Shown here: piece after piece, positions 5,889 through 54,496 of the stretch
How the letters are laid out: each line of letters starts with the position of its first letter
Numbering within the stretch: position 1 is the first letter of the stretch
IMG/VR virus record: IMGVR_UViG_3300027806_000037
Location: 1 to 64,000 of that record
DNA length: 64,000 bases
Source of the DNA: a virus
Lineage: Duplodnaviria; Heunggongvirae; Uroviricota; Caudoviricetes
Strand: one strand, 5' to 3'
Program-made: the position numbers and the translations under genes
The notes under the pieces: model-generated
Databases searched by the model: none
What the model was told of the DNA's origin: nothing
What the model saw: only the letters and a program-made list of their open reading frames with translations

Positions 5889-5937
5889 AAACCTTTTTCT
5901 TTTCTTTTTGTGTGGTGGGAAAATAAAATTTAAAATA
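5889..5937 (+). promoter_or_regulatory. conserved about 50-nt upstream element AACCTTTTTCTTTTCTTTTTGTGTGGTGGGAAAATAAAATTTAAAA (copy 1, upstream of IleRS-like gene)
   Basis: near-identical copy at about 10684..10748 upstream of another gene. Confidence 0.4.
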
Positions 5938-7911
5938 ATGAATAAAGTATTATTACCAAAAGAAGAAATTACACAGAAGTTAGATAGAGATAAACTTACT
6001 TTATTGAACGCTTCTATCAAAGATTATGTGAACAACTTGTATGAAAATTCAAATGATGAATACATTATACAAGATGGTGAACCATACGCCAATGGAGAAT
6101 TACATTTGGGACATTTTTTAAACAAAACCTTGAAAGATTTTGTTGTAAAATATTACTTAACAAAAGGTAAGAAAGTTAGGGTTTCATTTGGTTGGGACTG
6201 TCATGGTTTACCCATTGAAAATAAAGCAAAAGAAATGAGTGGTGATTTAATTCAAAATGCTAAATTAGTCGCAACCAAATATTGTGATATTCAAAATAAA
6301 ACTCTTGAACTTTTCGGGATTTATCCAACTGAAGGTAGGTTTAAAACTATGGATATTGATTTTATAGAAAGAGAATTATATATATACCACCAACTACTAA
6401 ATGCGGGTCTAATTCTTAAAAAGAATAAGCCTACTTGGTACTCACCAACATTAAAAACAGTATTGGCTAACTCAGAAATTGAATATAAAAAAATAGAAGA
6501 TGAATCTTTGTATTTTCTATTCAACTCTGATAGTTTTAAATTACTTGTTTGGACAACAACAGAATGGACTGTAAACGGAAATCAGGCAGTATGTTTAAGT
6601 AATAATATAAAATATGTTAAAACTGTTGACAATATTATTTGTAGTGAAAGTTTTGCTATTGAAAATAATTTAGATTATGATTTGTTTGATGTGAGTAATA
6701 TTAAGTCATATCATAACCACAATGGAGATTTATGTCCAATTATTTATGATGACTACGTTTCAGATGATAAAACAGGTATAGTACATCTTTGCGGTGGACA
6801 CGGTGATGAAGATTATCGAATTTTAATGGATAATAACATAACCCCCAAAAATGTGTGCGATAAAATCGGCTTATTAAAACACATAGAAGATTTTAAAATT
6901 GATGAAAAGTTTGTATATAAACGTGAAATTTACACACACGATTATCCAATTGATTGGCGTGAAGGGAATAAGGTGTATAAAGTATTAACGGAACAAACGT
7001 ATCTTGATTTTGATTTAAACAAAATAAAGACTTGTTTAAAAGAAATAAAGTTATCATCAAAAGACAGAAATCGTTTATCAACGACAATATTTTCACGCAA
7101 AGATTGGTGTATTTCAAGACAAAGAAAATGGGGTGTTAAAATACCTAATAGTAATGATATATTGGATGTTTGGTTTGATAGTGGTTCTACATTTATGATG
7201 TATGATAAACCTGCCGATATATACATTGAAGGTTCAGACCAACACAGAGGGTGGTTTCAAAGTTCGATTATATTAGCATCAATGATTGGTCGAGTACCAA
7301 CAAAAAGAATAATAACACACGGATTTATTGTTGATAACACATTAGAAAAACTATCAAAATCAAAAGGTAATGGCGGAAGTTTGGAAAAGCTGTATGAAAC
7401 ATATAACCCTGATGTATTAAGACTATGGGTTTTACTGTCAGATTTTAAAAACGATATTGTCTTTTCGGAAGATTCATTAAAAAACTCTGGTAAACAATAT
7501 TTTAAAATAAGAAACTTTCTCCGTTATTTATTTAATAATCTATATATATATGATTATGATGAAACAAAAGTTGATGAAAATATTTTTTTTAAAGTAAAAG
7601 AGTTGGAAAATAAATTTGATTTACTTGTCAATGAATTTGATTTGAATAAAGCAGTAAGGGGTTTTGTTGAATTTATAAACTATTATTCATCTTTGTTGAC
7701 GGAGGATATTAAAAATGAATTTTATGAATCTGACACAAATTCCAATATGAGAATTAAATATGAAACAGAGTTTTACTATGTTTTAAAACACTTAAATAAA
7801 CTACTTTTTTCGATTTTACCATTTCTTTCTATGGAAATAAAAAAAGCGTGGGAAGAAAAAAGAAAAGAAAAAGATTTACATGTAGGGACTATATTTGGAA
7901 ACGAGATGTAG
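5938..7911 (+). CDS. ileS: isoleucyl-tRNA synthetase-like class I aaRS, shortened (about 657 aa)
   Basis: PYANGELHLGHFLNKTLKDFVVKYY (HIGH region), GWDCHGLPIE, WTTTEWT, DWCISRQRKWGVKIP and KLSKSKGN (KMSKS) are IleRS signatures. Protein is about 250-400 aa shorter than canonical IleRS: reduced CP1, C-terminal Zn domain missing. Confidence 0.8.
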   Translation: MNKVLLPKEEITQKLDRDKLTLLNASIKDYVNNLYENSNDEYIIQDGEPYANGELHLGHFLNKTLKDFVVKYYLTKGKKVRVSFGWDCHGLPIENKAKEMSGDLIQNAKLVATKYCDIQNKTLELFGIYPTEGRFKTMDIDFIERELYIYHQLLNAGLILKKNKPTWYSPTLKTVLANSEIEYKKIEDESLYFLFNSDSFKLLVWTTTEWTVNGNQAVCLSNNIKYVKTVDNIICSESFAIENNLDYDLFDVSNIKSYHNHNGDLCPIIYDDYVSDDKTGIVHLCGGHGDEDYRILMDNNITPKNVCDKIGLLKHIEDFKIDEKFVYKREIYTHDYPIDWREGNKVYKVLTEQTYLDFDLNKIKTCLKEIKLSSKDRNRLSTTIFSRKDWCISRQRKWGVKIPNSNDILDVWFDSGSTFMMYDKPADIYIEGSDQHRGWFQSSIILASMIGRVPTKRIITHGFIVDNTLEKLSKSKGNGGSLEKLYETYNPDVLRLWVLLSDFKNDIVFSEDSLKNSGKQYFKIRNFLRYLFNNLYIYDYDETKVDENIFFKVKELENKFDLLVNEFDLNKAVRGFVEFINYYSSLLTEDIKNEFYESDTNSNMRIKYETEFYYVLKHLNKLLFSILPFLSMEIKKAWEEKRKEKDLHVGTIFGNEM

Positions 7912-14392: not shown

Positions 14393-14486
14393 CTAGTATA
14401 TATAAGTAAGTATAATCTAACCACTTAAAAATAAAGGACTTGAATAATAAAATTATTAAGATTTGTGAAGAAAAGTTTATATATTT
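14393..14486 (+). repeat. 94-bp perfect direct repeat, copy A (covers promoter region and first 15 codons of the tyrosine recombinase)
   Basis: ctagtatatataagtaagtataatctaaccacttaaaaataaaggacttgaataataaaattattaagatttgtgaagaaaagtttatatattt, identical at 43982..44075. Confidence 0.8.
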
Positions 14487-15240
14487 AAACTATTCACCAA
14501 GAACAAAAGATAATTATCTTTCACATATAAAAAATTTCTTAAATCACATTGGTAGTAAACAAGTAATACATTGTAATGCTCAAGATTTTCAATCCTATTT
14601 AGATAATTATAAATTCACTTCAACAGCACAACAAAACCAAATCATTAACGCAATAAGATTTCTCTACAAATTTGGTCTTAATAAAAAATATGATAAAATA
14701 TCGTTTAAAAGACCTAAATCTGAGAAGAAACTACCAAAAGTAATTGATTCAAATTCAATCATTGATAAATTAAATAAGATTGATAATCTCAAACACAAAG
14801 CAATTCTCACCTTAACTTTTTCAGTTGGTCTACGAGTCTCAGAAATAATTAATCTTAAAATAGAGGATATTGATTCCAAGCGAATGTTAATCCACATTAA
14901 GAACGCAAAAGGAAGAAAAGATAGAGTTGTTCCATTATCTCAAAATGTATTAAGACTATTAAGAACTTATTATAAAAATTATATCCCAAAGGAATATCTC
15001 TTCAATGGACAAAACAGTACTAAATATTCAATAGGTAGTTGTCAGAAAATATACAAAAAATATATTGAATCTGATGGACATATACACACACTTAGACACA
15101 GTTTTGCAACATCCTTATTAGAAAATGGAACAGATTTAAGAATTATTCAAAAAATTCTTGGTCATTCAAATGTTAAAACCACAGAAATATACACACACGT
15201 TTCAAATCAAATTTTGAACAAAATTAATTTGCCAGTTTGA
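14440..15240 (+). CDS. tyrosine site-specific recombinase/integrase (XerC/D-like), apparent TTG start
   Basis: Catalytic set R (LRVSEI), K (HIKNAKGRKDR), HxxR (HTLRHSFAT), H...Y (LGHSNVKTTEIYTHV). No in-frame ATG near the N-terminus; the frame opens after a stop at about 14413. Confidence 0.8.
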   Translation: MNNKIIKICEEKFIYLNYSPRTKDNYLSHIKNFLNHIGSKQVIHCNAQDFQSYLDNYKFTSTAQQNQIINAIRFLYKFGLNKKYDKISFKRPKSEKKLPKVIDSNSIIDKLNKIDNLKHKAILTLTFSVGLRVSEIINLKIEDIDSKRMLIHIKNAKGRKDRVVPLSQNVLRLLRTYYKNYIPKEYLFNGQNSTKYSIGSCQKIYKKYIESDGHIHTLRHSFATSLLENGTDLRIIQKILGHSNVKTTEIYTHVSNQILNKINLPV

Positions 15241-17201: not shown

Positions 17202-18182
17202 ATGAAAGACGCAACGATTGAAATTATTTCTGAAGTCAAAGCTCATCCTGATGCAGATAGACTTGATCTTGTTAAGATTCTTGGGTTTCAATGCGTTACA
17301 CAAAAAGGACTTTATAAGGGTGGTGAGAAAATTGTTTATATTCGACCTGATGCGGTTCTTCCTATTGAACCTTGGACTGAAGAGTATCGAAAATATTCAC
17401 CAAAACGAATCAAAGCTGTAAAACTTCGTGGCGAATTTAGTGAAGGTATTATTGTTAGGTTTGAACAACTTCCAGTTGATTTATCAAATCTTCAAGTTGG
17501 CTCTGATGTGAGTGAACAAATTGGTGTTGTTCATTATGAAGCACCACAACCACAAGATCTTCAAGCAAAAGGTTATCTTCCGGTTGGAATTGGTCCCACT
17601 GATGAAATTCGATTTGAGAATATCATTGATGAACTTCCATTCGGTTCAATTGTTGATGTTACATCTAAAGTTGATGGACAAAGTTGTAGTTTCTATTATA
17701 ACATTGAAACTGATGAATTTGGTGTTCTTGGAAGAAACTTGGAAATGAAGTTGGATGCGGTAAATAACTATACCGCACATGTTGCTCGTTACAACATTAA
17801 AAATAAGCTTATTGACTATTGCAAAAAACATAATGTTTCTTTGTGCATTCGTGGTGAGTCGTTTGGTCAAGGGATTCAAAGTTCTGGAAACAATCCACAT
17901 TCTCAAAAACCAAAAGGGTGGGTAATGTTTTCTGTATATAACATTAAAGAACGTAAATATCATAGAAAGAACGATAGATTCTATTTTAGAAATGTTGCGC
18001 AAGAATTGGAATTACCATTCGTTGATATCATTGAATTGGATGTCGAATTAACTAATGAGTTGATTCAAAAATATTCGGTTGGTATTGATAAAATTGAAGG
18101 TAAACCTTTTGAGGGTGTTGTAATTAATCATGAAAATGGTTCTTTTAAAGTTATTAACAAATCTTATGATTCTAAAAAATGA
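17202..18182 (+). CDS. fusion of tRNA-binding OB domain (Myf/EMAP/CsaA type) and RNA ligase nucleotidyltransferase domain
   Basis: N-terminus EVKAHPDADRLDLVKI ... KGGEKIVYIRPDAVLP ... LRGEFSEGII matches the tRNA-binding domain of MetRS-C/PheT-N/CsaA. C-terminus has ligase motif I KVDGQS, motif III-like IRGESFG, motif IV EGVVI, motif V FKVINK. Confidence 0.6.
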   Translation: MKDATIEIISEVKAHPDADRLDLVKILGFQCVTQKGLYKGGEKIVYIRPDAVLPIEPWTEEYRKYSPKRIKAVKLRGEFSEGIIVRFEQLPVDLSNLQVGSDVSEQIGVVHYEAPQPQDLQAKGYLPVGIGPTDEIRFENIIDELPFGSIVDVTSKVDGQSCSFYYNIETDEFGVLGRNLEMKLDAVNNYTAHVARYNIKNKLIDYCKKHNVSLCIRGESFGQGIQSSGNNPHSQKPKGWVMFSVYNIKERKYHRKNDRFYFRNVAQELELPFVDIIELDVELTNELIQKYSVGIDKIEGKPFEGVVINHENGSFKVINKSYDSKK

Positions 18183-25303: not shown

Positions 25304-25567
25304 ATGAAAAATATTTATTATATTGATAAAAACACAAGAATTCGTTTTATACCATCAAATGATGGTCTGGAATATCACATTCTTGAACGTAAAACATTTG
25401 TAAAGGTTTTTAATTATATACTTTTTACCTATTGGAGAGAATGTACCACTGTAACAAATTTAATGTTTAATTTAAGTTCCGATATTAATGAATTTATAAA
25501 ACATGTGTTAGAGAAAGAAAAGATGGAAAATAAAAAACCAACAAAATTTAAAGGTTATCCAGAATAA
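25304..25567 (+). CDS. hypothetical protein
   Basis: ATG (MKNIYYIDKN) inside track ORF 25265..25567. Confidence 0.4.
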   Translation: MKNIYYIDKNTRIRFIPSNDGLEYHILERKTFVKVFNYILFTYWRECTTVTNLMFNLSSDINEFIKHVLEKEKMENKKPTKFKGYPE

Positions 25568-25585
25568 ATAATCTCCGTTCCTTCT

Positions 25586-25601
25586 CCCCCCCCCCCCCCC
25601 C
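25586..25601. repeat. poly-C homopolymer tract (about 16 C) in a CT-rich block
   Basis: ctccgttccttctcccccccccccccccttaac. Confidence 0.8.
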
Positions 25602-25621
25602 TTAACAAAAAAAATAATAAA

Positions 25622-25801
25622 ATGAGTTACACAATATACAGAACTGTTAATTTACCTAATGAAAAACCATATGTACAATACATTACACATGGTTTTGAAA
25701 CTGAGGAAGAAGCAAATGTTTTTATAAAGAAACATTATGGACCGGATGATATTTTTAAAGAAGAGGTTGAAGCGTTCAAATATTTTGTTGTGCAAGAATA
25801 A
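25622..25801 (+). CDS. small hypothetical protein (59 aa, not in track) bracketed by poly-C tracts
   Basis: MSYTIYRTVNLPNEKPYVQYITHGFETEEEANVFIKKHYGPDD... Confidence 0.4.
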   Translation: MSYTIYRTVNLPNEKPYVQYITHGFETEEEANVFIKKHYGPDDIFKEEVEAFKYFVVQE

Positions 25802-25820
25802 TTCCCGTCTTCCTTTCCTT

Positions 25821-25839
25821 CCCCCCCCCCTCCCCCCCC
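25821..25839. repeat. poly-C tract (C10-T-C8) in a CT-rich block
   Basis: ttcccgtcttcctttccttccccccccccctcccccccctc. Confidence 0.8.
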
Positions 25840-25878
25840 TCTTATTTAATAAGATTAAAAAAAAATAGAAAATTTATA

Positions 25879-26073
25879 ATGAAAACAAAAGAACTATTAG
25901 AATTTTTGAAAACATTACCAGAAGAATTTCTAGATTATTCGATTGTTAATGGTGAGGAAGGTATTTTTGAAGATGAAATTAGATATAGAGTTGATAAACC
26001 AATAGTCAGTGTGATAGTTGACGAGGAAACCAAAGAAGTTGTGTTATGTCATCAATATTCTGAAAAAAAATAA
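25879..26073 (+). CDS. hypothetical protein
   Basis: 64-aa ORF. Confidence 0.4.
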   Translation: MKTKELLEFLKTLPEEFLDYSIVNGEEGIFEDEIRYRVDKPIVSVIVDEETKEVVLCHQYSEKK

Positions 26074-26337
26074 TAATAAAAATTAAAAATTCGTTTTTTA
26101 GTCTAATTTTTCTATTAGATACAATAACACATAATACAATACGTTTTATGGTTAATAATAGGTTTGAGTTAAGTTGAAAAATCTCACAAGTTACGAATAT
26201 TTTTTTTAATTTGGAATAGATGAACAATGAATAACATTAAATATTAAATTTCCAAATTAACTTATTAACTTATTAACTTTAACTATTTTTTTTGTGTTGA
26301 ATTTATTTTTTTATTACAATTTCATCTTGACTTCAGT

Positions 26338-26468
26338 AATCCTATTAGCGTCCATAACGCCTAATACAATAGACGCTATACAGCTTAATACAATAGCGTC
26401 CATAACGCCTAATACAATAGACGCTATACAGCTTAATACAATAGCGTCCATAACGTCTAATAGGACCG
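26338..26468. repeat. 48-bp tandem repeat (about 2.5 copies) with internal ATAGCGTC/GACGCTAT inverted repeats, the whole block enclosed by CCTATTAG...CTAATAGG
   Basis: unit gcgtccataacgcctaatacaatagacgctatacagcttaatacaata; lies inside a 650-bp ORF-free region that also has TTAACTTA direct repeats at about 26250..26280. Confidence 0.7.
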
Positions 26469-26737
26469 AATTAATCTCAAAAACCCAGCAAGATACGGAG
26501 AACTTTTTGATTCTGCAATAGCTAAAGAACATATAACAATAAATATAACAAAAGCAAGGATTTTAACATTTTTTTTCTGTTAATAACTTTTTCTTTCAAA
26601 CTATTTGGAAATACGAAGTCTTTTGCGTATACTTCGCGCACACGCACGTTCCTTATTAGTGTGGGGTATGGTCAAAAATTATTTTTCGTTGGCGCTTGTA
26701 TTTTTGAATTTTTGTTGTAGCTTTGCATAAATTAAAA

Positions 26738-26908
26738 ATGACGACCATGAATAAGCAACGAGTGATTGATGCTGACAATATGAGGACATTGGAAGTCTTT
26801 GATAGCAAAGACACCGATACTGTCCTCAGTCGTTATCGAGCGATGGGTAAGTGGGATGACGTTGATGTTGATGGGGATGGTGATATAATTTTGTTTAAGG
26901 ATGAGTAG
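26738..26908 (+). CDS. hypothetical acidic protein
   Basis: ATG after the TTTG promoter box (tgtagctttgcataaattaaaaATG). Confidence 0.45.
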   Translation: MTTMNKQRVIDADNMRTLEVFDSKDTDTVLSRYRAMGKWDDVDVDGDGDIILFKDE

Positions 26909-27007
26909 ATATAAATTAAACAACCATTGGGGCAAAGATACACAAACTTTTTAACAAAAAATTGGTCCATTGTTGAAAAGTTTTACTTGCATCGAACCGG
27001 AATTTTT

Positions 27008-27035
27008 TGTACCTTTGCATAAATGAAAGATAACA
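27008..27035 (+). promoter_or_regulatory. example of the conserved promoter/leader class (TnTnnTTTGyAT ... A-rich leader ... ATG)
   Basis: tgtacctttgcataaatgaaagataacaATG. More than 40 instances between 26.7 and 57 kb, e.g. ttatctttgtgttgtcaaacaaaccaaaaaccaacaaccaATG at about 36055. Confidence 0.55.
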
Positions 27036-27380
27036 ATGAAAATTTGCATTTATTTTAAGGATATTGATTCGGATGTATTTTTCTCAAATGAGGATTTGAA
27101 AGAGGGTGATGAAGTTTTTCCTATTGTTGAGTCAAGACTTGTAAATGGTGAGTGGTATTTAACGGGTCTGAGACTAAAAGATGGAATGTGTTCAGATGAA
27201 AAGCAATATTGCACTGGTTTTCCTAATGATTCTCATAAAATTATTAACTTATCGTATAGTGATTATCGTCCATATGAAGTTAGGACAAATCACGGATATG
27301 GACCGATTGAGTCTTATTTTAAGGTAATTAATATTGTTAAGAGAGAAAGAGTAGAACCAATAAAACCAAAACAACCATGA
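27036..27380 (+). CDS. hypothetical protein
   Basis: 114-aa ORF with conserved promoter. Confidence 0.5.
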   Translation: MKICIYFKDIDSDVFFSNEDLKEGDEVFPIVESRLVNGEWYLTGLRLKDGMCSDEKQYCTGFPNDSHKIINLSYSDYRPYEVRTNHGYGPIESYFKVINIVKRERVEPIKPKQP

Positions 27381-27706
27381 AGGTCACGATTTCAAAAATA
27401 ATCTCTAACGAACTCCAACACAAACTCATGGTGATACATGATACCGATGACTTGTTGGACGATTATTGTGTAACCAAAGATGAAGTTTACCAACTCGTTT
27501 CTTCACTTCCCGTTGATGGTGGTGAATGGGAAATTCCACAACATCACATGATGATGGTTATGGTAGAATGTCATGATTCTGCTGACATTAATGGTTATAT
27601 GATGTTGGAAGCAATGAAGGATGGTGATTATGAGAACGCTAAAGTGTTTGGTCAGATTGTGAGAGAGTTGGATAAACTTTTCAAAATTAATTTGGTGGTT
27701 CAATAA
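27377..27706 (+). CDS. hypothetical protein
   Basis: 109-aa ORF. Confidence 0.5.
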   Translation: MKVTISKIISNELQHKLMVIHDTDDLLDDYCVTKDEVYQLVSSLPVDGGEWEIPQHHMMMVMVECHDSADINGYMMLEAMKDGDYENAKVFGQIVRELDKLFKINLVVQ

Positions 27707-27742
27707 TTATTTGTACCTTTGTATCACTAAACCAAAGATAAT

Positions 27743-28120
27743 ATGGCAATTAAACCAAATGAACTTATTACGGATTCTGAAAAAATTAAAGAACAGGTTA
27801 ATATTGCAGTAGCAAGATTTGATAATATTCTTAAAAAGAAATCTCCGGATTTTAATTATTATACCGCATCAATAGATGGTGTATTATCTTTTGAAATCTG
27901 CAAAGAGATTGTTAAGGAATACATTAATGTTGGTTGGGCTTTTGCGAGATGTGTTCCATCTGAATCTGAACAATTTACAGAACTATGTCTTTGGATGATT
28001 AAAGATGTTCATACTGAACATTGTAGTATTTATTCTTGTAAGTATGGTGAAGAGGATTTTTGTACTGTCTATCAAAGACGTGTTCCACCAACAAGCAATA
28101 ATTGGGATGATGAATATTAG
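27743..28120 (+). CDS. hypothetical protein
   Basis: 125-aa ORF with conserved promoter. Confidence 0.5.
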   Translation: MAIKPNELITDSEKIKEQVNIAVARFDNILKKKSPDFNYYTASIDGVLSFEICKEIVKEYINVGWAFARCVPSESEQFTELCLWMIKDVHTEHCSIYSCKYGEEDFCTVYQRRVPPTSNNWDDEY

Positions 28121-28187
28121 GGGGTAATAAAATTTGCAGAATTAGAATTTTCATTATACCTTTGCATTAATCAAAACCAAAGTAACA

Positions 28188-28466
28188 ATGAATCAATACA
28201 CGCACCCTTTGTATGTCTCTCCCGCTAAGGATAAAAATCGTAAGAAATATGGTGAAGGTGATGGGAATTATTGCATTTGTTGTTATCTTCCGATGAAACC
28301 CGGTGAAACCAAAATGGTTCACATGAATGAAGATTGGTTGATTGTATCAAATGATGTTACAGATGAAAATTGTGAAGTATTGACTGGTGCTAAAAGTCAA
28401 GGTTGTTTTAATATTGGTAACTCTTGCGCGAAGAAACACCCCCAAAAATTCATAATTAGTTATTAA
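28188..28466 (+). CDS. hypothetical Cys-rich protein
   Basis: 92-aa ORF, CICCYLP ... C..C. Confidence 0.45.
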   Translation: MNQYTHPLYVSPAKDKNRKKYGEGDGNYCICCYLPMKPGETKMVHMNEDWLIVSNDVTDENCEVLTGAKSQGCFNIGNSCAKKHPQKFIISY

Positions 28467-28523
28467 CAATCGTAAAAGGTAACGGAATTATACATATATT
28501 TGCATCGTCAAACCAAAACAACA

Positions 28524-29315
28524 ATGGAAAAGAGCAAAACATACGAACACATGACCGATTCCGATAAGATGGTTTACGACCTTCTTTTTGAGAAACTTCA
28601 GAGTGTATATGCTGAGAATGAAGTAGGTATCAAGAACCTCAATAGTAATCTTGAATATTACTTCAAAGGTCTTGTTGATGTACCTGATACCATTGGACTT
28701 AATGTGAATTTTGGCGGTTACTCTACTACGTTGCGAATCACAGAAAAGGATAGCAAAAACTGGGGTCGTGATTTGAACATTTATGTTAAAGAGAATCGCG
28801 ATTATGTTAATAATAAGGTGGAAATTGAAGGTATTGAAATGTCGATGTCAAGTATGCGTTTTTCATCCACAAAATTTGATGTTGAAGATTTTGTTCACTT
28901 GATGCTTTGTGCGGAAATTGCAAAGCGTATGGATGAAGTTCAGAGTCAGATTGTTCGCGCATATCATGTCTACCATGAAATGAACAATAAAGTGTATAGT
29001 ATTTCCGCTCCGATGGATAAATTGGTACGAGAAACTCAACAAAGGGTTCGTGAAGAGCAACGAAATAAGGTTATGTCAGCTATTGCAGATGGTGTTACCA
29101 TTGAGTTCAAATACAAAGGTGGAACGGTAACGGAACATATCTTTATTCATAAAGTTAACAAGAAAACCGTTCATGCGACATTCTATAAGAATGGTTGGCG
29201 ACAAGATGAAGCAATGCGATTTAATCTTGATGATTTGATTGAGAAAATTGCGCGACAAGATTTCAAAATTGTTGATAACTCGGAGATTAAAAAGTTGCGC
29301 GAATCACAAAATTGA
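28524..29315 (+). CDS. hypothetical protein
   Basis: ATG (MEKSKTYEHM) following the promoter; track ORF 28500 starts at TTG within the promoter. Confidence 0.5.
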   Translation: MEKSKTYEHMTDSDKMVYDLLFEKLQSVYAENEVGIKNLNSNLEYYFKGLVDVPDTIGLNVNFGGYSTTLRITEKDSKNWGRDLNIYVKENRDYVNNKVEIEGIEMSMSSMRFSSTKFDVEDFVHLMLCAEIAKRMDEVQSQIVRAYHVYHEMNNKVYSISAPMDKLVRETQQRVREEQRNKVMSAIADGVTIEFKYKGGTVTEHIFIHKVNKKTVHATFYKNGWRQDEAMRFNLDDLIEKIARQDFKIVDNSEIKKLRESQN

Positions 29316-29355
29316 TGTATATTTGCATCGTCAAACTCTAAAACACAGAACAAAC

Positions 29356-30210
29356 ATGAACAATCGAATTGAACAAGTTTTGAACGAAACCGGACTTAAC
29401 TGGACCGTTCGTGAAGAAAGCATGGTAACAGCAAGCGGAATCGTGATTCCGGATCGCAAAGCACTCATCCGTGAGGATAATAATGAGGTATTGTCTGTGC
29501 ATGGTGAAGGTTATCAAGCATATCAGAATTACCAACTCGTTGAACTCTTGGATAGGGTTTCCGCACAAGTTGGTCTACCAATTCATTCAGGTGGTCTATT
29601 TGGTGAGGGTAAAAAAGTATTCATCCAACTTAAATCGAATGACCTTTCGCTCGGTTCTGACAAAGTTGTTGGATACATCACCGGAATTAATTCATTCGAT
29701 GGATCCACAAGTCTTGCGTTCGGACCAAGCAATTTGACCATTTCATGTCAGAATACATTTTTCTCGGTCTTCAGAACATTGGAGAATAAGATTAAGCATA
29801 CCAAGAATATGGAATTGCGAATTGATGATGTATGCAAAGGTATGGAGGTTGCAATGAAGGAAGAAGCAAAAATGTTTGAAACCATCAAACGAATGTTTGA
29901 AACAGAGTTTGGTGCGAAGGAACGAGATTTTGTCACCAAGACATTGTTTAACGTTAAGGATAATGTTAATCTTATGGATATTGATGCGGTATCGACAACC
30001 ACAAGAAATCGCATCACAACTTTTGAACATGACTTGCTCCGCGAATTGAAAGAAAAGGGTAATACCTTGTGGGGTTTGTTCTCAGGTGTGACACGATACA
30101 CAACGCACTCTTTGGGTAAAGGTGATAGTACGGAGAATAAGATGTTCGGAACCTATGGAAATCGTGAGCGACAAATTTTTAGGGAATTGAGCGAACTTGT
30201 GGAGGGATAA
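29356..30210 (+). CDS. DUF932-family protein (phage/ICE-associated)
   Basis: ATG (MNNRIEQVLNETGLNWTV...); GLNWTV ... SVHGEGYQAYQN ... VGYITGINSFDGSTSLAFGPS is the DUF932 pattern. Confidence 0.55.
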   Translation: MNNRIEQVLNETGLNWTVREESMVTASGIVIPDRKALIREDNNEVLSVHGEGYQAYQNYQLVELLDRVSAQVGLPIHSGGLFGEGKKVFIQLKSNDLSLGSDKVVGYITGINSFDGSTSLAFGPSNLTISCQNTFFSVFRTLENKIKHTKNMELRIDDVCKGMEVAMKEEAKMFETIKRMFETEFGAKERDFVTKTLFNVKDNVNLMDIDAVSTTTRNRITTFEHDLLRELKEKGNTLWGLFSGVTRYTTHSLGKGDSTENKMFGTYGNRERQIFRELSELVEG

Positions 30211-30285
30211 AAAAAGTTGCTCAGGTATTTGGAGGTAACGAAAATAGTTATACCTTTGTGGGGTCAAACCAAAACAACAACAACC

Positions 30286-30498
30286 ATGTTCCAACTCGTA
30301 GCAAGAATCAACGACTTTGCAACCTTCACCTTTAGTGCATCTGAGCATAAATGGTTGAATCATAAATTTCACGAAATCAATCCTTATGAAGTAGCTGTTG
30401 CTCGTCATGAAGATGTTGTGGAGGGAATGGAAATGCTCAAAGAAATCTTTGGACCTGTTCAAGCAAATATTGATGTAAAACTTTTGTGTCTTAACTAA
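30286..30498 (+). CDS. hypothetical protein
   Basis: ATG (MFQLVARINDF) after the promoter. Confidence 0.45.
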   Translation: MFQLVARINDFATFTFSASEHKWLNHKFHEINPYEVAVARHEDVVEGMEMLKEIFGPVQANIDVKLLCLN

Positions 30499-30585
30499 AA
30501 ATTAACAAAAAAGATTTGCATAAATCAAATGAAGGTTGTAATTTTGTCTCGGTAAATTAAATGTCTAACTAAAATCTAAGTACAC

Positions 30586-30723
30586 ATGGAAAATGTAGTG
30601 GTAAGTGAGAAGCGTAAAGTCGGTCGTCCCAAAGGTTCGGTGAACCCTAACTCTAAGCGTCAACAAAAGTTGCGCGAACGAGCAGAGCGAGATGCACATA
30701 AGACTGTTGAAGTGGAAGCATAA
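30586..30723 (+). CDS. AT-hook mini-protein, paralog 1 (45 aa, not in track)
   Basis: MENVVVSEKRKVGRPKGSVNPNSKRQQKLRERAERDAHKTVEVEA; GRP AT-hook core. Confidence 0.5.
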   Translation: MENVVVSEKRKVGRPKGSVNPNSKRQQKLRERAERDAHKTVEVEA

Positions 30724-30775
30724 GTAGGTGGGGTATTTGGGTCGGGTGAAATTGGTCATCCGATCCCCCACCGAA
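30724..30775 (+). terminator. hairpin downstream of AT-hook gene 1 (GGTGGGG...CCCCACC, A-run after)
   Basis: gtaggtggggtatttgggtcgggtgaaattggtcatccgatcccccaccgaaaaaaaag. Confidence 0.35.
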
Positions 30776-30863
30776 AAAAAAGAGAAAAAAGACTTGCAAA
30801 ATTGAATAAGAATAGTTAACTTTGTATCGGTAACAGAAACACAAACCTTAAACACGAAAAACG

Positions 30864-31022
30864 ATGGAAGCAACTCTTGAAGCACCGGTAACGTCTGTGG
30901 AAACTGCAAAGCGCAAGCGCGGTCGTCCCAAAGGTTCTGTTAAACCTGACTCTAAGCGTCAACAAAAGTTGCGCGAACGAGCAGAGCGAGAAGCAAGGAA
31001 AGCTGAGGAAGCACAAGGATAA
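30864..31022 (+). CDS. AT-hook mini-protein, paralog 2 (52 aa, not in track)
   Basis: MEATLEAPVTSVETAKRKRGRPKGSVKPDSKRQQKLREREREARKAEEAQG; about 90 nt nearly identical to paralog 1. Confidence 0.5.
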   Translation: MEATLEAPVTSVETAKRKRGRPKGSVKPDSKRQQKLRERAEREARKAEEAQG

Positions 31023-31039
31023 TTGGTTGGTTGGTTTGG

Positions 31040-31085
31040 TTAAGTAGGTGGAGAGGGTCGGTGAAAACGTCACCGACCCCCACCG
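31040..31085 (+). terminator. strong hairpin downstream of AT-hook gene 2
   Basis: GGTGGAGAGGGTCGGTGA-AAAC-GTCACCGACCCCCACC. Confidence 0.4.
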
Positions 31086-31100
31086 AAAAGTAAAAGAGTT

Positions 31101-31275
31101 CTTTGAATATCATATCTGTGGGTCAAGACCGCTCCTTGGTCGGGAGAAGAGAAACTTCGGTTGTGTAAACGACCTATGTTCATGTGTGATTGTAAAGCGA
31201 CAACTGCATGGTCTGCGACCAGCGATGTGGGTAAACCGTAATCCCACCACATGAACTTGCACACCCACAGATATG
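31101..31275 (+). ncRNA. candidate structured ncRNA (long-range stem CATATCTGTGGGT ... ACCCACAGATATG enclosing internal hairpins)
   Basis: 13-bp closing stem about 150 nt apart; internal ATGTGGG...CCCACCACAT hairpin; no credible ORF. Confidence 0.3.
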
Positions 31276-31339
31276 AAAATTTTCAGGTAAGTGTTGGAGA
31301 TATGAAAATAATGCTTATCTTTGTGATGTTCTTTGATTA

Positions 31340-31480
31340 GATTGTTTCGGTGACGCTTGGGTATCGTTAGGTCTTACAAATCCCAAGATTTATGTTCTGA
31401 CGCAAAGGAACACAGCGTTATGCTGTTATTTGGCGCAAATATTCCTAACCATTAATATTTTTAGTCACCGGAACAATTTA
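31340..31480 (+). ncRNA. candidate promoter-driven noncoding transcript (closed by CGGTGAC ... GTCACCG; internal CTTGGG...CCCAAG hairpin)
   Basis: preceded by a promoter copy gaaaataatgcttatctttgtgatgttctttga that is duplicated before tRNA-Leu. Confidence 0.3.
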
Positions 31481-31532
31481 ATTTGGAAATGTGAAATGGA
31501 TGTTGTATCTTTGTGATGTTCTTTGACTTAAT

Positions 31533-31849
31533 GCTCCCGTGGTGAAATTGGTAAACACAACAGACTTTAGACTTAACTACCTCATTTTCAGGTAGTTAGA
31601 ATTTGAGTGCATCACTTGAAAAGGTGAATGTAGAATACCGTAAATTCAGGGAACGCTTAACTGCCAATCCTGAGCCAAGCGTGATGAAAATCATGAAGGT
31701 GCAGAGACTAGACACGGTACGCCTAAAACGAAAGTTATGGCGATGGTATAGTCCAGACCACAAACCCAATATTGGGGCGGCGAAAGTCGAAGTGGTAAGA
31801 AAATCTGTCGCCCCCAACGGGCTTGTCAGTTCGATTCTGACCGGGAGCA
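31533..31849 (+). tRNA. tRNA-Leu(UAA) interrupted by a group I intron in the anticodon loop (exons about 31533..31567 and 31800..31849; 85-nt mature tRNA with long variable arm)
   Basis: Acceptor GCTCCCG/CGGGAGC, D-arm GTGA..ACAC, anticodon stem ACAGA/TCTGT, loop CUU^AAAA (U34^A35 insertion), variable arm CGCCCCCAACGGGCTT, T-arm GTCAG-TTCGATT-CTGAC, discriminator A. Confidence 0.75.
31568..31799 (+). ncRNA. group I self-splicing intron (about 232 nt)
   Basis: P AATTCAGGGAA (about 31643), Q AATCCTGAGC (about 31666), R GTGCAGAGACTAGACA (about 31699), S GATGGTATAGTCC (about 31742). P/Q and R/S are complementary (P4, P7). 3-prime terminal G then exon AAAATCTGT. Track ORF 31603..31893 runs past the exon and is taken as spurious. 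Confidence 0.75.
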
Positions 31850-31869
31850 CATTTTTAGGTTCGACTTTT

Positions 31870-31941
31870 GCCCCCATAGTTAAATGGATATAATAGAAAA
31901 CTTCTAATTTTCGGTTCCTAGTTCGATTCTAGGTGGGGGTA
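31870..31941 (+). tRNA. tRNA-Arg(UCU)
   Basis: Acceptor GCCCCCA/TGGGGGT, anticodon stem GAAAA/TTTTC, loop CTTCTAA (anticodon TCT), T-arm CCTAG-TTCGATT-CTAGG. Confidence 0.7.
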
Positions 31942-32008
31942 CTGAAACTTTTTCATCCTAAATCGAACTTTTGAATTATTCCTTATATTTATAGGGAAAG
32001 ATTCGATA

Positions 32009-32662
32009 ATGAGATTAAATAATGAAAAAACCAAAGGTGATATTGGTGTCACACAAGTAATAGCAGACTTAACTAAAAAGGGGTATCAAGTTGCAATCCC
32101 AATCGCGGAACATCTACAATATGATTTAATTTGTCACGATACGACAAATAATAAATTGTTTAGATTACAAGTTAAATACGATAAGGTTAATGCGATTCTT
32201 TGTACGAAAAATTTTCGCACAACTAACGGGGAGGTAGTAAAGAAATATGAGATTCACGATTTTGAATATTATGCAATTTATCTACCTGATATAGACGAGT
32301 GCGCATACATACCCAATGTTGGGTTAACACATATGACAGTAAGAACTACTTTACCTCTTTACAAAGATAGGGATATAATTTGGTGGGAAGACTATAAATA
32401 CCCAACCGGAACTACAATCACCTATCGTAAACCGAGTGATATTAACCCAAATTTTAGAATGATTTACCCTAAAAATACATATGGTAAACGTAAAGTCAAA
32501 AATCGCCCAACCAAAGAAGAATTACAAACGCTAATCGAAACAACACCATACACGAAAATAGGTGAATTATATGGTGTATCAGATAATGCAATACGGAAAT
32601 GGGCGAAATCTTATGGAATATTGAAAAATAAGTATAAGAAAAATTTGCAAGTCTCGGATTAA
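32009..32662 (+). CDS. hypothetical protein with possible PD-(D/E)xK-like N-terminus and C-terminal helix-turn-helix; candidate free-standing nuclease
   Basis: YDLICHD...FRLQVKYD (D ... QxK) and C-terminal TPYTKIGELYGVSDNAIRKWAKSYGI HTH-like; placement beside the intron-containing tRNA. Confidence 0.35.
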   Translation: MRLNNEKTKGDIGVTQVIADLTKKGYQVAIPIAEHLQYDLICHDTTNNKLFRLQVKYDKVNAILCTKNFRTTNGEVVKKYEIHDFEYYAIYLPDIDECAYIPNVGLTHMTVRTTLPLYKDRDIIWWEDYKYPTGTTITYRKPSDINPNFRMIYPKNTYGKRKVKNRPTKEELQTLIETTPYTKIGELYGVSDNAIRKWAKSYGILKNKYKKNLQVSD

Positions 32663-32885
32663 TGATGTAACTTTACAATCTCAATCACGGTTAACTGTTC
32701 ATCAGTATACTGCGTCAACAGCGAAAGTGAACAAGTGACTTAAATGCAGCGGTGCTTCGGTTGTTGACGCAACCGTAACTGGTTCGACTCCAGCGTGATT
32801 TGACCCGGATCTCACAACGGAACTACCATCCATCCGCTGTTGTGGGATAAAAAGAGATGGGTGGGTCGTCAACCGGGTAAACGGT
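32663..32885 (+). other. structured non-coding region with tRNA-like features
   Basis: AATCACG (about 32683) pairs with CGTGATT after a T-arm-like CTGG-TTCGACT-CCAG (about 32775..32800). A 10-bp hairpin TGCGTCAACA...TGTTGACGCA has a 40-nt loop. Further hairpin CACAACGG...CCGCTGTTGTG. Confidence 0.3.
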
Positions 32886-32887
32886 AC

Positions 32888-32920
32888 AGAGGTGGTAGCC
32901 AGTCACCTCATTTTTTTTTC
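32888..32920 (+). terminator. rho-independent terminator
   Basis: GAGGTG-gtagccagt-CACCTC followed by ATTTTTTTTT. Confidence 0.65.
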
Positions 32921-32979
32921 AAATGTGGTTGCACATACCAAAAAAATAATCTATCTTTGCATCACTAAACCAAACGAAT

Positions 32980-33330
32980 ATGAAATATATTGGAACACAT
33001 TCTTATAGTGATACTTCATATTACCAAGATGGTGATAAGTTCTATCGTGAGCAAAAAGAAAGCGTGGATACCTCCACAACTCTTAAAGAACATCTTAAAC
33101 ACGTTCAGCGAGTACTCGCTAACTATCCTGATGCTCTTTTCACAACAGAACGTTTGAAGTACGAGGATGGTTATGAGGTGGTATTCACATATAATGTAGA
33201 AGTACCAGCGTTCGATAAAAACCTCAATGAAGTTTTGCAAATGAATGCAAAACGAGAAGTACAACAAAAAGTAAATGATGCGAAACTTCTTGAAGAATTG
33301 AAAAAACGTTCACCCGAACTCTTCAAATAA
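32980..33330 (+). CDS. hypothetical protein
   Basis: 116-aa ORF with conserved promoter tctatctttgcatcactaaaccaaacgaatATG. Confidence 0.5.
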   Translation: MKYIGTHSYSDTSYYQDGDKFYREQKESVDTSTTLKEHLKHVQRVLANYPDALFTTERLKYEDGYEVVFTYNVEVPAFDKNLNEVLQMNAKREVQQKVNDAKLLEELKKRSPELFK

Positions 33331-33385
33331 ATTTGCATCTTCCGAATTATTGTTGTAACTTTACCAAACCAAAAACAGAAAACCA

Positions 33386-33706
33386 ATGTATCCACAATCA
33401 GTAAATGAATTTGTTGCTCAGGTTGTCCAATCTCTTGATGAGAGTGGATTTCTGACTGAAAATGATGTTGATAAGGAATCAGCAATCAAAGCATTCGGTG
33501 AGGTTGTATTTGAGCGATGGAAACGTGGTGATGATTTGGTAATGAGTGAGGAAGATGCTATTAAGGGTATGCAACTATCAATTGTTGAATCTACAATGAA
33601 GCAATTGATGAATAAAAATATGATTGATAGCATCGAAGATGAAAACGGTGAGCAGGTATTTTTCTTGACTGAAAAAGGTAAGGATTACGCAAACAAAAAT
33701 CTTTAA
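33386..33706 (+). CDS. hypothetical protein
   Basis: 106-aa ORF. Confidence 0.5.
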   Translation: MYPQSVNEFVAQVVQSLDESGFLTENDVDKESAIKAFGEVVFERWKRGDDLVMSEEDAIKGMQLSIVESTMKQLMNKNMIDSIEDENGEQVFFLTEKGKDYANKNL

Positions 33707-33707
33707 T

Positions 33708-33899
33708 ATGAAATACATTATTGGGTTAATTATTGCTGTCGTTGGTATAATTATCACTATTGGGGTTTTGATTTCGCCCCTTTATTATGTGATTACTAAG
33801 GACGAACCGTTGTATTTGCTTCTATTTCTCGTATCACCCATTGGCGCTACAATTGTTGCACACGTCTTTTTAGCTATTGCGAAACTATTTTATGATTAG
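33708..33899 (+). CDS. small membrane protein
   Basis: two TM segments. Confidence 0.45.
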   Translation: MKYIIGLIIAVVGIIITIGVLISPLYYVITKDEPLYLLLFLVSPIGATIVAHVFLAIAKLFYD

Positions 33900-33972
33900 G
33901 TCTAAAAATAGTTATTAACATTCGTTGGAGATAAAAGATTTATGTGTATATTTGTATTAAACAAAACAACAA

Positions 33973-34422
33973 ATGAAAGCAACGCTTGAAAACGGAATTG
34001 TCATCGAACTCACGCAAGAACAACTTGCTCAGATTGATAAACAACGAAATAAAGATGTTAAAACCAAAGAACAACGATTCTTGGAATTGATTTCAGGAAT
34101 TGATGTTCATCAACCGAAGGTTGATTTCCAAAAATATCCAAATCTCTTGTTTTGGTTTGATAAAGATGGAAATTATGTCTGCGAATACGATTGGAAAAAT
34201 AACCATTTTTGGTTCTCATATTCAAATGTTTGGTCAGTTTTTGAATCGGAATTCGCCCTTAATTATCAGGAAATCAGGATGTTCTTGAATGGTATGGTGG
34301 AAGAACATTTCAAATTGGAGGGTGTTACAACAAAGGCAACTCACGCCGCCCCTGCTGTTGCGGTGGAAGAACATTTCAAATTGGAGGGTGTTACAACCAA
34401 AAGTGACCCGTTGTATAATTAA
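33973..34422 (+). CDS. hypothetical protein, paralog A (contains internal 45-bp tandem duplication EEHFKLEGVTTK)
   Basis: about 95% identical to 38456..38839 over 125 aa. Confidence 0.55.
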   Translation: MKATLENGIVIELTQEQLAQIDKQRNKDVKTKEQRFLELISGIDVHQPKVDFQKYPNLLFWFDKDGNYVCEYDWKNNHFWFSYSNVWSVFESEFALNYQEIRMFLNGMVEEHFKLEGVTTKATHAAPAVAVEEHFKLEGVTTKSDPLYN

Positions 34423-34494
34423 TGTTAATAACTAAATTTGGTGGTTTGATTTTTTCTTTTTAACTTAGCATTAGAAACCAAAAACAACAAAACA

Positions 34495-52044: not shown

Positions 52045-52208
52045 ATAATGTTCACTTCACTCTCCCCCTCCTTTTCTCATGTTCTCCCCCTTTTCGGGGT
52101 CAAACATTCGGGAGTGGTTCGTTCAGTTAACATTATTTAATCCCCCTTTTCTAATGGGTCATATTAGATGATGACTATATGCTACATTAGCATCAATAAA
52201 GAAAAACA

Positions 52209-54175: not shown

Positions 54176-54496
54176 AGCAAATATCATCCCCCATCTAATG
54201 TGGGGTCTCTATATGGGGATAATGGGGGTATAACACCCCCCTCCCCCTCCGTATCCCCTCCATATAGGGGGTTTTTTGACGGTTTTGGGGGGGATAATCC
54301 CAAACATAAAATCCTCAGAAAAATTTTTGGGAAATTTTTTGTAAAAATGACCTCCCCCTTTCTTAATCTATTTCTTTATTCTAAAACATGACCCCTTCTT
54401 ATAAGGAAGGGTAAAATCTATTTTAGAATTTTTGGAAAATTTTTTGGAAAAATGAATTTTATCATATATCTTTACAATCCTTAAATCAAAAAAGAA

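Follow-up and report, generated by a model that had tools for sequence, protein, structure and literature searches.

Which function should be assigned to a stretch of phage DNA that holds no conserved gene, is crowded with tandem and inverted repeats and lies between two dissimilar sets of genes? The stretch considered here comprises the 664 nucleotides (nt) from position 26074 to 26737 of a 64,000-nt sequence (referred to below as the window), which represents positions 1 to 64,000 of the IMG/VR virus record IMGVR_UViG_3300027806_000037, a member of the Caudoviricetes. A preliminary description had proposed the region as a candidate replication origin or regulatory switch. The regulatory part of this proposal fits better, since conserved non-coding DNA lies directly upstream of the first promoter of an array of small genes, while comparison with relatives does not support the origin and there is no indication of a two-state switch. 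Our preferred reading, held tentatively and as possible rather than probable, is that the region is a boundary and control cassette for transcription, contains a hairpin prone to slippage and heads an array of promoter-plus-small-gene units. The element is regarded as of an ordinary kind, the phage that carries it being unusual and uncultured.

The region consists of two tandem paralogous modules, followed by a GC-rich block of 32 nt and then by the first canonical promoter of the array (Table 1), and it is syntenic in four diverged metagenome contigs (L047, L045, L049 and L051). Each module, of ∼200 nt, begins with a stem-loop closed by the arms CCTATTAG and CTAATAGG, continues with ∼130 nt of AT-rich DNA that is conserved in sequence and poor in structure, and ends with TTAACA-T8C-TGTTAA and a T-rich run. 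Two copies of the module are present in the window and in L047, and one copy each in L049, L051 and L045. The module cores were delimited by nhmmer at 26149-26300 and 26450-26584. Module 1 is the decayed member of the pair: a profile built from five module copies matches 26149-26300 at E 4e-26, and one repeat family (D3) relates 26112-26141 to the array at 80%, but its remnant stem folds no better than shuffled sequence (z -0.8), its identity to L047 is 62%, and no counterpart is present in L049, L051 or L045. Module 2 contains, in order, the blocks CAAAAACCCAGCAAGrTACG, TTTTTGAwTyTGCAATAGC and ATAACAATAAATATAACA, the inverted repeat TTAACA-T8C-TGTTAA (26563-26583), the palindrome GTTAATAAC (26579-26587) and the T-rich run. 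The gene for an acidic protein of 53-56 amino acids (aa) always accompanies the cassette and is located downstream of it in L047, L045, L049 and L051. Neither this protein nor the 64-aa product of the upstream gene matched a family in Pfam or PHROGs.

The repeats named in the preliminary description are all present at the positions it gave and exceed chance expectation. The three direct copies of ATTAACTT were recovered by Tandem Repeats Finder (TRF) as a perfect (100%) match, and the 48-nt unit was found in 2.4 copies, rather than 2.5, at 26346-26462 with 98% matches. The score of this array (227) is the highest of any tandem repeat in the window, and the same tract can alternatively be described as a 24-nt unit repeated 4.9 times at 74%. 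The inverted pair within the units is formed by GACGCTAT (at 26372 and 26420) and ATAGCGTC (at 26393 and 26441), two 8-mers that occur in two copies each and nowhere else in the window. The block is closed by the inverted repeat of CCTATTAG (26341) and CTAATAGG (26457), a pair essentially unique to the array site, and the array folds much better than its shuffles on both strands (z -4.2 and -4.3). The palindrome said to follow further downstream fared less well: ACGAAGT (26613-26619) and ACTTCG (26631-26636) are there, but are not conserved as a pair, the left arm reading CTGAACT in L047 and L045, and L051 altering both arms without restored pairing. The region had been called free of open reading frames (ORFs). 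No ORF is common to the relatives across the region, yet the array in the window is traversed by two mechanical ORFs (72 and 75 aa).

The origin and age of the repeats were evident from five diverged metagenome relatives (L047, L045/L046, L049, L048 and L051). L047 and L045/L046 were found through homologues of the upstream 64-aa gene (76-79% amino-acid identity), L049 and L048 by scanning metagenomes for a 21-mer of the conserved block (∼91-93% nucleotide identity), and L051 through a homologue of the downstream 53-aa gene. The number of 24-nt units inside the closing stem is five in the window, three in L049, L048 and module 2 of L047, and one in L051 and module 1 of L047, i.e., 1, 3 or 5 half-units of the 48-nt repeat across diverged lineages. 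L045/L046 has no such units, and carries two unrelated AT-rich hairpins (z -4.2) at the equivalent position. The single-unit form is a 28-nt hairpin, CCTATTAGCG(T/C)CCATAACGCCTAATAGG, with a folding energy (dG) of -13.3 and z of -5.3 in L051, and of -11.2 and -3.7, respectively, in module 1 of L047. The same closing stem is predicted in the window, L049, L048, L047 and L051. The interiors of the units are lineage-specific (GACGC/GCGTC in the window, GGAGC/GCTCC in L049 and L047) and fold differently, and the two alternating unit types are only 74% alike. No other module copy contains the ATTAACTT triplet, an insertion that occurs only in this phage; elsewhere its position is taken by a single TTAAC, or by ATTAAGATATTAACATTAAC in module 1 of L047. 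Judging from the varying unit number (5, 3, 1 or 0) and the uniqueness of the triplet, the supposed iterons and AT-rich repeats are recent, lineage-specific products of slippage, expansions of a single small, conserved hairpin within conserved non-coding DNA. The earlier case for an origin had rested on iterons plus AT-rich repeats and had been staked on their presence in related genomes, where they proved to be absent or not conserved; an origin would be expected to keep a fixed set of repeats.

In L045, L047 and L049, a hairpin follows the stop codon of the upstream gene by ∼15-45 nt, even though the upstream gene of L049 is a different one. In that contig, a 146-aa gene (177-615) replaces the sequence equivalent to 25879-26073 and module 1, so that the gene upstream of the hairpin has been swapped.

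Copies from the same species were represented by 16 metagenome contigs, obtained by exact-sequence lookup of the 114-aa and 96-aa neighbors. Where these contigs cover the region, they match the window at 100% identity outside the repeats. The array comprises five units in six of these assemblies, three units in three (L024, L026 and L032) and two units in one (L030), a variation that reflects either true length polymorphism or assembly collapse.

In contrast to the repeats, other parts of the region are well conserved. The core of module 2 (26465-26592) is 84% identical to L047 and 79% to L045, compared with 75% for the upstream gene and 80% (L047) and 77% (L045) for the downstream gene. Module 2 and the 32-nt block are therefore as conserved as the flanking genes, or more so, in lineages that are ∼25% diverged, which is not the behavior of neutral sequence. 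The 32-nt block is unique in the window even when three mismatches are allowed. It starts 20 nt after a conserved TTTGGA (26604-26609), and TATACTTC (26628-26635) is thereby placed where the -7 box of a second, non-canonical promoter would lie. The inverted repeat TTAACA-T8C-TGTTAA, which overlaps GTTAATAAC, and the T-rich run that follows it are identical in all lineages, and the module string TTTTTGAwTyTGCAATAGC resembles the spacer of a real promoter, TTTTTGAATT..GTAGCTTTG. RNAalifold detected almost no covariation on either strand, and the consensus energy of seven module copies was only -4 kcal/mol, with a covariation term of +1.4. Near-absence of covariation points to constraint on primary sequence, the hairpin stem excepted, as expected for DNA that is contacted by protein.

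The promoter array itself was analyzed throughout the window. The motif TAnnTTTG occurs 112 times on the plus strand, where ∼45 occurrences are expected. In total, 42 strict promoter cassettes were detected, in which TTG precedes TAnnTTTG at the right distance and ATG follows within 10-40 nt. Their consensus, TTTGgaa-N-TAtCTTTG...CAAACCAAAAC...ATG, corresponds to the -33/-7 promoter type described for Bacteroides and Flavobacterium. Of these cassettes, 31 are distributed over the 37 kb at or to the right of 26718, and the remaining 11 over the 26.7 kb on its left. The promoter that opens the array has the form TTG-N19-TAGCTTTG, both elements being kept in L047, L045, L049 and L051, and its TTG (26696) and TAGCTTTG (26718) are positioned 20 nt before the ATG. 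The region had been said to separate a heterogeneous upstream gene set from a run of genes with uniform promoters. Cassette density supports such a boundary, as does GC content, which steps from 26-28% (1-26000) to 31-41% (27000-34000) across the region, but the separation holds only in part, given the 11 cassettes on the left. The two flanks of the 26-27 kb region, with their GC step and doubled promoter-cassette density, resemble different expression or ancestry classes.

The palindrome GTTAWTAAC, which is also present in the module, occurs 13 times in the window versus ∼1.7 expected (∼8-fold). It is usually located 35-38 nt upstream of the -7 box of an early promoter, often straight after the preceding stop codon, and may represent a regulator site or an UP-like element. 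Three genes (27036-28120) are absent from L049, which is ∼92% identical, and positions 1239-1262 of that contig align to both 27000-27023 and 28145-28168, with the crossover inside the shared -7 box TACCTTTGCAT. This indel, together with the swap of the upstream gene in L049, represents shuffling mediated by promoter cassettes. Paralogous gene-plus-promoter cassettes were also observed at 33973-34500 and 38456-38920; they have in common the 13-nt tandem repeat GGAATTGATGTTCA (34083 in one, 38566 in the other) as well as identical strings upstream (34433 and 38850).

Table 1. Positions of the features of the boundary region and of other features in the window.
Feature	Position	Strand	Details
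Whole non-coding boundary region	26074-26737	.	Flanked by the 64-aa gene (25879-26073) and, on the right, the 53/56-aa gene (26738/26747-26908)
Module 1, decayed paralogue of module 2	26095-26300	+	Remnant stem CTATTAG (26112-26118) / TAATAGG (26156-26162)
ATTAACTT x3, local expansion of TTAAC near the 3' end of module 1	26256-26279	+	TRF, module alignment
Stem-loop with expanded loop	26341-26464	+	Arms CCTATTAG 26341-26348 and CTAATAGG 26457-26464; five 24-nt units A B A B A'
Module 2 core, AT-rich non-coding	26465-26595	+	nhmmer E 3e-32
ACGAAGT/ACTTCG inverted pair	26613-26636	+	Pairing not kept in relatives
GC-rich 32-nt block GTATACTTCGCGCACACGCACGTTCCTTATTA	26627-26658	+	Invariant in four lineages, one change in L051
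First canonical promoter of the array	26696-26725	+	-33 TTG 26696-26698; -7 TAGCTTTG 26718-26725; overlapping TATTTTTG 26699-26706
Small acidic protein gene, 53-56 aa	26738-26908	+	Homologues 89-100% identical
72-aa mechanical ORF	26314-26532	-	Runs through the array
75-aa mechanical ORF	26294-26521	+	Runs through the array
Two C-rich tracts left of the region	C16 25586-25601; C10TC8 25821-25839	+	
GTTAWTAAC sites (examples)	28459, 33911, 34778, 40138, 42203, 45684, 46731		
Class I aminoacyl-tRNA synthetase	5908-7911		Low-GC left part of the window
Short XerC/D-like tyrosine recombinase	14440-15240		Low-GC left part of the window
RNA ligase	17202-18182		Low-GC left part of the window

According to the boundary and control reading, the stem-loop and a weak AT-rich hairpin with its T-run (26563-26595) would form in rightward transcripts, where they would halt, attenuate or process transcription reading through from the low-GC operon to the left. 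The conserved blocks, including that of 32 nt, would serve as contact sites for RNA polymerase or a regulator and would thereby set the activity of the first promoter of the array, relative to which they lie at -60 to -250. Both termination and regulator binding are putative. Several observations speak against this scheme. A U-tract is missing after the main stem-loop. The remaining promoters of the window lack stem-loops, the best upstream hairpin averaging -7.3 kcal/mol over the 42 cassettes versus a background of -6.5 kcal/mol; a hairpin thus does not belong to the cassettes in general. Among the 126 ORFs of the window, all of which were scanned against Pfam and PHROGs, a DNA-binding regulator was not recognized. 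Moreover, the first hairpin after the upstream gene has decayed in the window, and the intact one lies 270 nt past the stop codon. Finally, conserved AT-rich non-coding DNA is also what one would expect of an origin, or of a site that acts in cis in packaging or injection.

A rather unlikely alternative to the boundary and control cassette is that the region encodes one or two small non-coding RNAs, or an RNA derived from a 3' untranslated region, in tandem duplicate, each composed of a 5' stem-loop, an unstructured body of ∼110 nt and an AT-rich hairpin with a U-run. A size of ∼155 nt (in L051) and duplication in tandem are both typical features of small RNAs, and a -7-like box, TAAkTTTy, precedes the hairpin (by 5 nt in L049 and L051), with no accompanying -33 element. 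The inverted repeat and the following TAACTTTTTCTTTC are identical in all lineages, and L047 and L045 have an additional hairpin, GTTAAAA..TTTTAAC, before a T10 run, but a 10-nt indel deletes this terminator-like hairpin in the window, L049 and L051. The body of the predicted RNA has no conserved secondary structure, the covariation term being positive. In Rfam 15, only two tRNAs of the window reach the gathering score, neither of them in the region, and for 25500-27100 only sub-threshold chance matches were obtained at E up to 5.

In its extreme form, this alternative becomes a decoy comparable to pseudo-ToxI, for which expansion of repeats in an intergenic phage locus provides a precedent (PMC3475682). 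The array would then be an early-transcribed, expandable decoy RNA that titrates a defense or toxin protein of the host, and selection by different hosts would drive the 1-, 3- and 5-unit states observed among natural populations. We consider the chance of this to be slight. Unit-like sequence was not found in 185,579 species genomes with the exact pattern TAGCGYCCATAACGYCTAATA, a scan in which exact matches only were detectable. If true, the decoy array would be the first such element in a Bacteroidota jumbo phage. In a less exotic version, module 2 and the invariant 32-nt block may represent the first mapped origin of this phage group.

As an origin, the region would bind an initiator at the 24-nt units and melt at the AT-rich stretch of 26200-26330; in a variant of T4 or T7 style, the promoter beside the unwinding element would prime replication. 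The five units do adjoin a stretch of 14-22% GC, the sequence is non-coding and conserved, and promoters are located immediately to the right. We nevertheless regard this reading as improbable. The units number 0, 1, 3 or 5 in the relatives, and both the 74% likeness of their two alternating types and the lineage-specific interiors are at odds with a set of initiator sites. Furthermore, their 24-nt spacing corresponds to 2.3 helical turns, which would not place the sites on one face of the helix. Both the AT-rich stretch and the ATTAACTT triplet are parts of module 1, which is absent from L049, L051 and L045, and 26200-26330 is not the AT-richest site of the window. No Rep, O, P, DnaA-like, primase-helicase, helicase-loader or Par gene was recognized among the 126 ORFs, and the region contains no DnaA box, TTATCCACA occurring in the window only at 2533 (plus strand) and 59579 (minus strand). 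There is also no change of GC skew, which is positive in every 2-kb interval, with its minimum (0.054) at 25-27 kb. All sizeable ORFs of the window are on the plus strand, however, and skew tracks transcription when all genes are co-oriented, so that it is uninformative with regard to an origin. The origin reading has thus lost its founding evidence, although an origin could lie in module 2 and the invariant block.

That the region is functionless debris, i.e., decaying tandem duplicates of a promoter cassette together with a neutral variable-number repeat, is decidedly improbable. Module 1 is indeed decaying (62% identity to L047, with a remnant stem), the length of the array is unstable, and the module resembles a promoter without its -33 and TTTG elements. 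Such an account is contradicted by the conservation of module 2 and the 32-nt block, which equals or exceeds that of the flanking genes across ∼25%-diverged lineages.

It is very improbable that the region acts in cis as a DNA site for arresting injection, for packaging or for genome ends, in the manner of the iss of phage T5. The appeal of this reading lies in a large untranslated region with nested repeats and palindromes, between gene sets that differ in composition and promoter density, and in the many public contigs that end within 1 kb. These contigs, however, end from both sides in or beside the poly-C tracts (25586-25601 and 25821-25841), and only one ends in the array, while the window and several other contigs read straight through. 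Clustering of contig ends at C-rich tracts, and not at repeats, indicates failed sequencing or assembly of homopolymers rather than a genome end, and the tracts probably explain the breaks in public contigs to the left of the region. DnaA boxes, a conserved hallmark of the T5 iss (bioRxiv 10.1101/866236), are lacking.

Long C runs were also observed elsewhere, at 52058-52093 and 54228-54267 of the window and in L049 (104-128, at least C19), L047 (1-15) and L045 (912-930). In this genome of 30% GC, they are restricted to the sense strand and located 20-40 nt before the starts of small genes, in positions that are conserved in the relatives. They might serve as sites for Rho loading, as contingency tracts prone to slippage or as alternative promoter elements.

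Extremely improbable is a minus-strand gene for a 72-aa protein with an internal 16-aa repeat: its frame is open across the array, copy-number variants differ by multiples of 24 nt, and it is annotated as a gene in some public metagenomes, but it would be the sole minus-strand gene in ∼25 kb, has no upstream promoter motif, reads GTG instead of ATG in L049 and has a different upstream frame in L047 (leaving ORFs of only 20 and 31 aa), shows four non-synonymous changes to one synonymous change between the window and L049 outside the array, and matched, among 1.84 billion representatives, only itself, a truncated copy and low-complexity sequence. The frame is created by the tandem repeat, and its annotation as a hypothetical protein (L025 and L028) is probably a false gene call.

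Several further candidates were rejected. An attP site, with the invariant block as the core of a host attB and the tyrosine recombinase of the window, yielded one match in Enterobacterales, where about one chance match is expected for a 20-mer in 596 Gb. An invertible switch is contradicted by ∼15 public copies that are all in one orientation, and a genome end at the repeats by the location of contig ends at the poly-C tracts. CRISPR-like or retron-like elements were discarded, as there are no spacers and no reverse transcriptase or Cas gene among the 126 ORFs, and a sopC-type partition site because these ORFs include no ParA or ParB gene.

The larger context of the region was also considered. 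The window encodes a class I aminoacyl-tRNA synthetase, an RNA ligase, a tyrosine recombinase, a DUF932 protein, homing endonucleases and two tRNAs. The RNA ligase gene is present on a public contig of 256 kb, which identifies a jumbo phage; the region is carried by a large (∼256 kb) freshwater phage that uses Bacteroidota-type promoters. Near and distant searches of INPHARED recovered no relative of this phage. In IMG/VR, the 39-nt array string and the 32-nt block were unmatched, and a degenerate two-unit pattern gave four chance matches, to a low-complexity coding repeat of giant-virus bins and to one contig without relation to the phage. Neither of two neighboring genes led to relatives: the DUF932 gene was the only one in common with 22 jumbo-phage loci, and the 114-aa neighbor is not in IMG/VR, its homologues being in different synteny. 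Unrelated jumbo-phage contigs with DUF932 were found to contain 23-nt tandem arrays of 2-3.4 copies with a TGCGCA core, in both orientations (L013 1989-2037 and 11886-11951; L014 6350-6415; L016 1599-1676; L018 1958-2003). Short intergenic arrays appear to be common in this DUF932-carrying group.

These results carry a useful correction, in that tandem and inverted repeats beside AT-rich DNA are insufficient as evidence of an origin, and a few diverged metagenomic relatives suffice to distinguish conserved parts from recent slippage. The conserved stem, the structure-poor module of ∼130 nt and the 32-nt block provide targets for work on transcription control in uncultured Bacteroidota jumbo phages.

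Comparison with known systems places the region closer to some than to others. Iteron origins, such as lambda ori and plasmid oriV, share with it several non-coding copies of ∼20 nt beside AT-rich DNA, and the preliminary description had taken this combination as the classical signature of an origin. In the region, however, the units alternate between two types inside a palindrome, at a spacing of 24 nt and in a number that is not conserved; an adjacent initiator gene and a DnaA box were not found, and the AT-rich element is missing from relatives. The region thus lacks the defining features, namely at least three like-oriented copies of one 17-22-bp binding sequence whose number and phase are conserved in relatives, a conserved AT-rich unwinding element, an adjacent initiator gene and DnaA boxes. 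The iss of T5 is a large untranslated repeat region with ordered DnaA boxes (bioRxiv 10.1101/866236). Like it, the present region is untranslated, contains direct repeats, inverted repeats and palindromes, and divides two gene classes, but it is much shorter, with no DnaA box in 26074-26737 and no evidence of terminal repeats. At the pseudo-ToxI locus of the large lytic phage PhiTE, the repeat number rose from 1.5 to 4.5-5.5 by slippage (PMC3475682). Here too, an intergenic tandem repeat of a few tens of nt in a large phage varies in copy number, with assembly collapse possible for some of the same-species variants. In contrast to the pseudoknots of ToxI, the present units form a nested hairpin, and the exact scan of species genomes revealed neither an antitoxin array of a host nor a toxin with which the repeat would match.

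The promoter-early stem-loop (PeSL) cassettes of T4-type phages combine a promoter for the host sigma factor with a stem-loop before a small orphan gene (PMC2839356, PMC4122927). The present region is likewise a composite intergenic element, in which a stem-loop and a consensus promoter of host type stand directly before a small orphan gene. It is surrounded by near-identical promoter cassettes (42 in the window), and an indel junction between relatives falls inside such a cassette (27036-28120 versus L049, at TACCTTTGCAT). It differs in being six times longer (664 nt versus ∼100 nt), in its Bacteroidota-type -33/-7 elements instead of the sigma-70 -35/-10, and in the position of the stem-loop, which stands ∼250 nt ahead of the promoter, across a long conserved spacer. 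Also, the other ∼40 cassettes of the window are without a stem-loop, so that not each promoter carries one, and terminator activity is putative here. By this analogy, the region would work like a boundary of the PeSL type, without being classified as a member, and the shuffling of promoter cassettes known from T4-type coliphages has a counterpart in the window that is based on the -33/-7 promoters of Bacteroidota.

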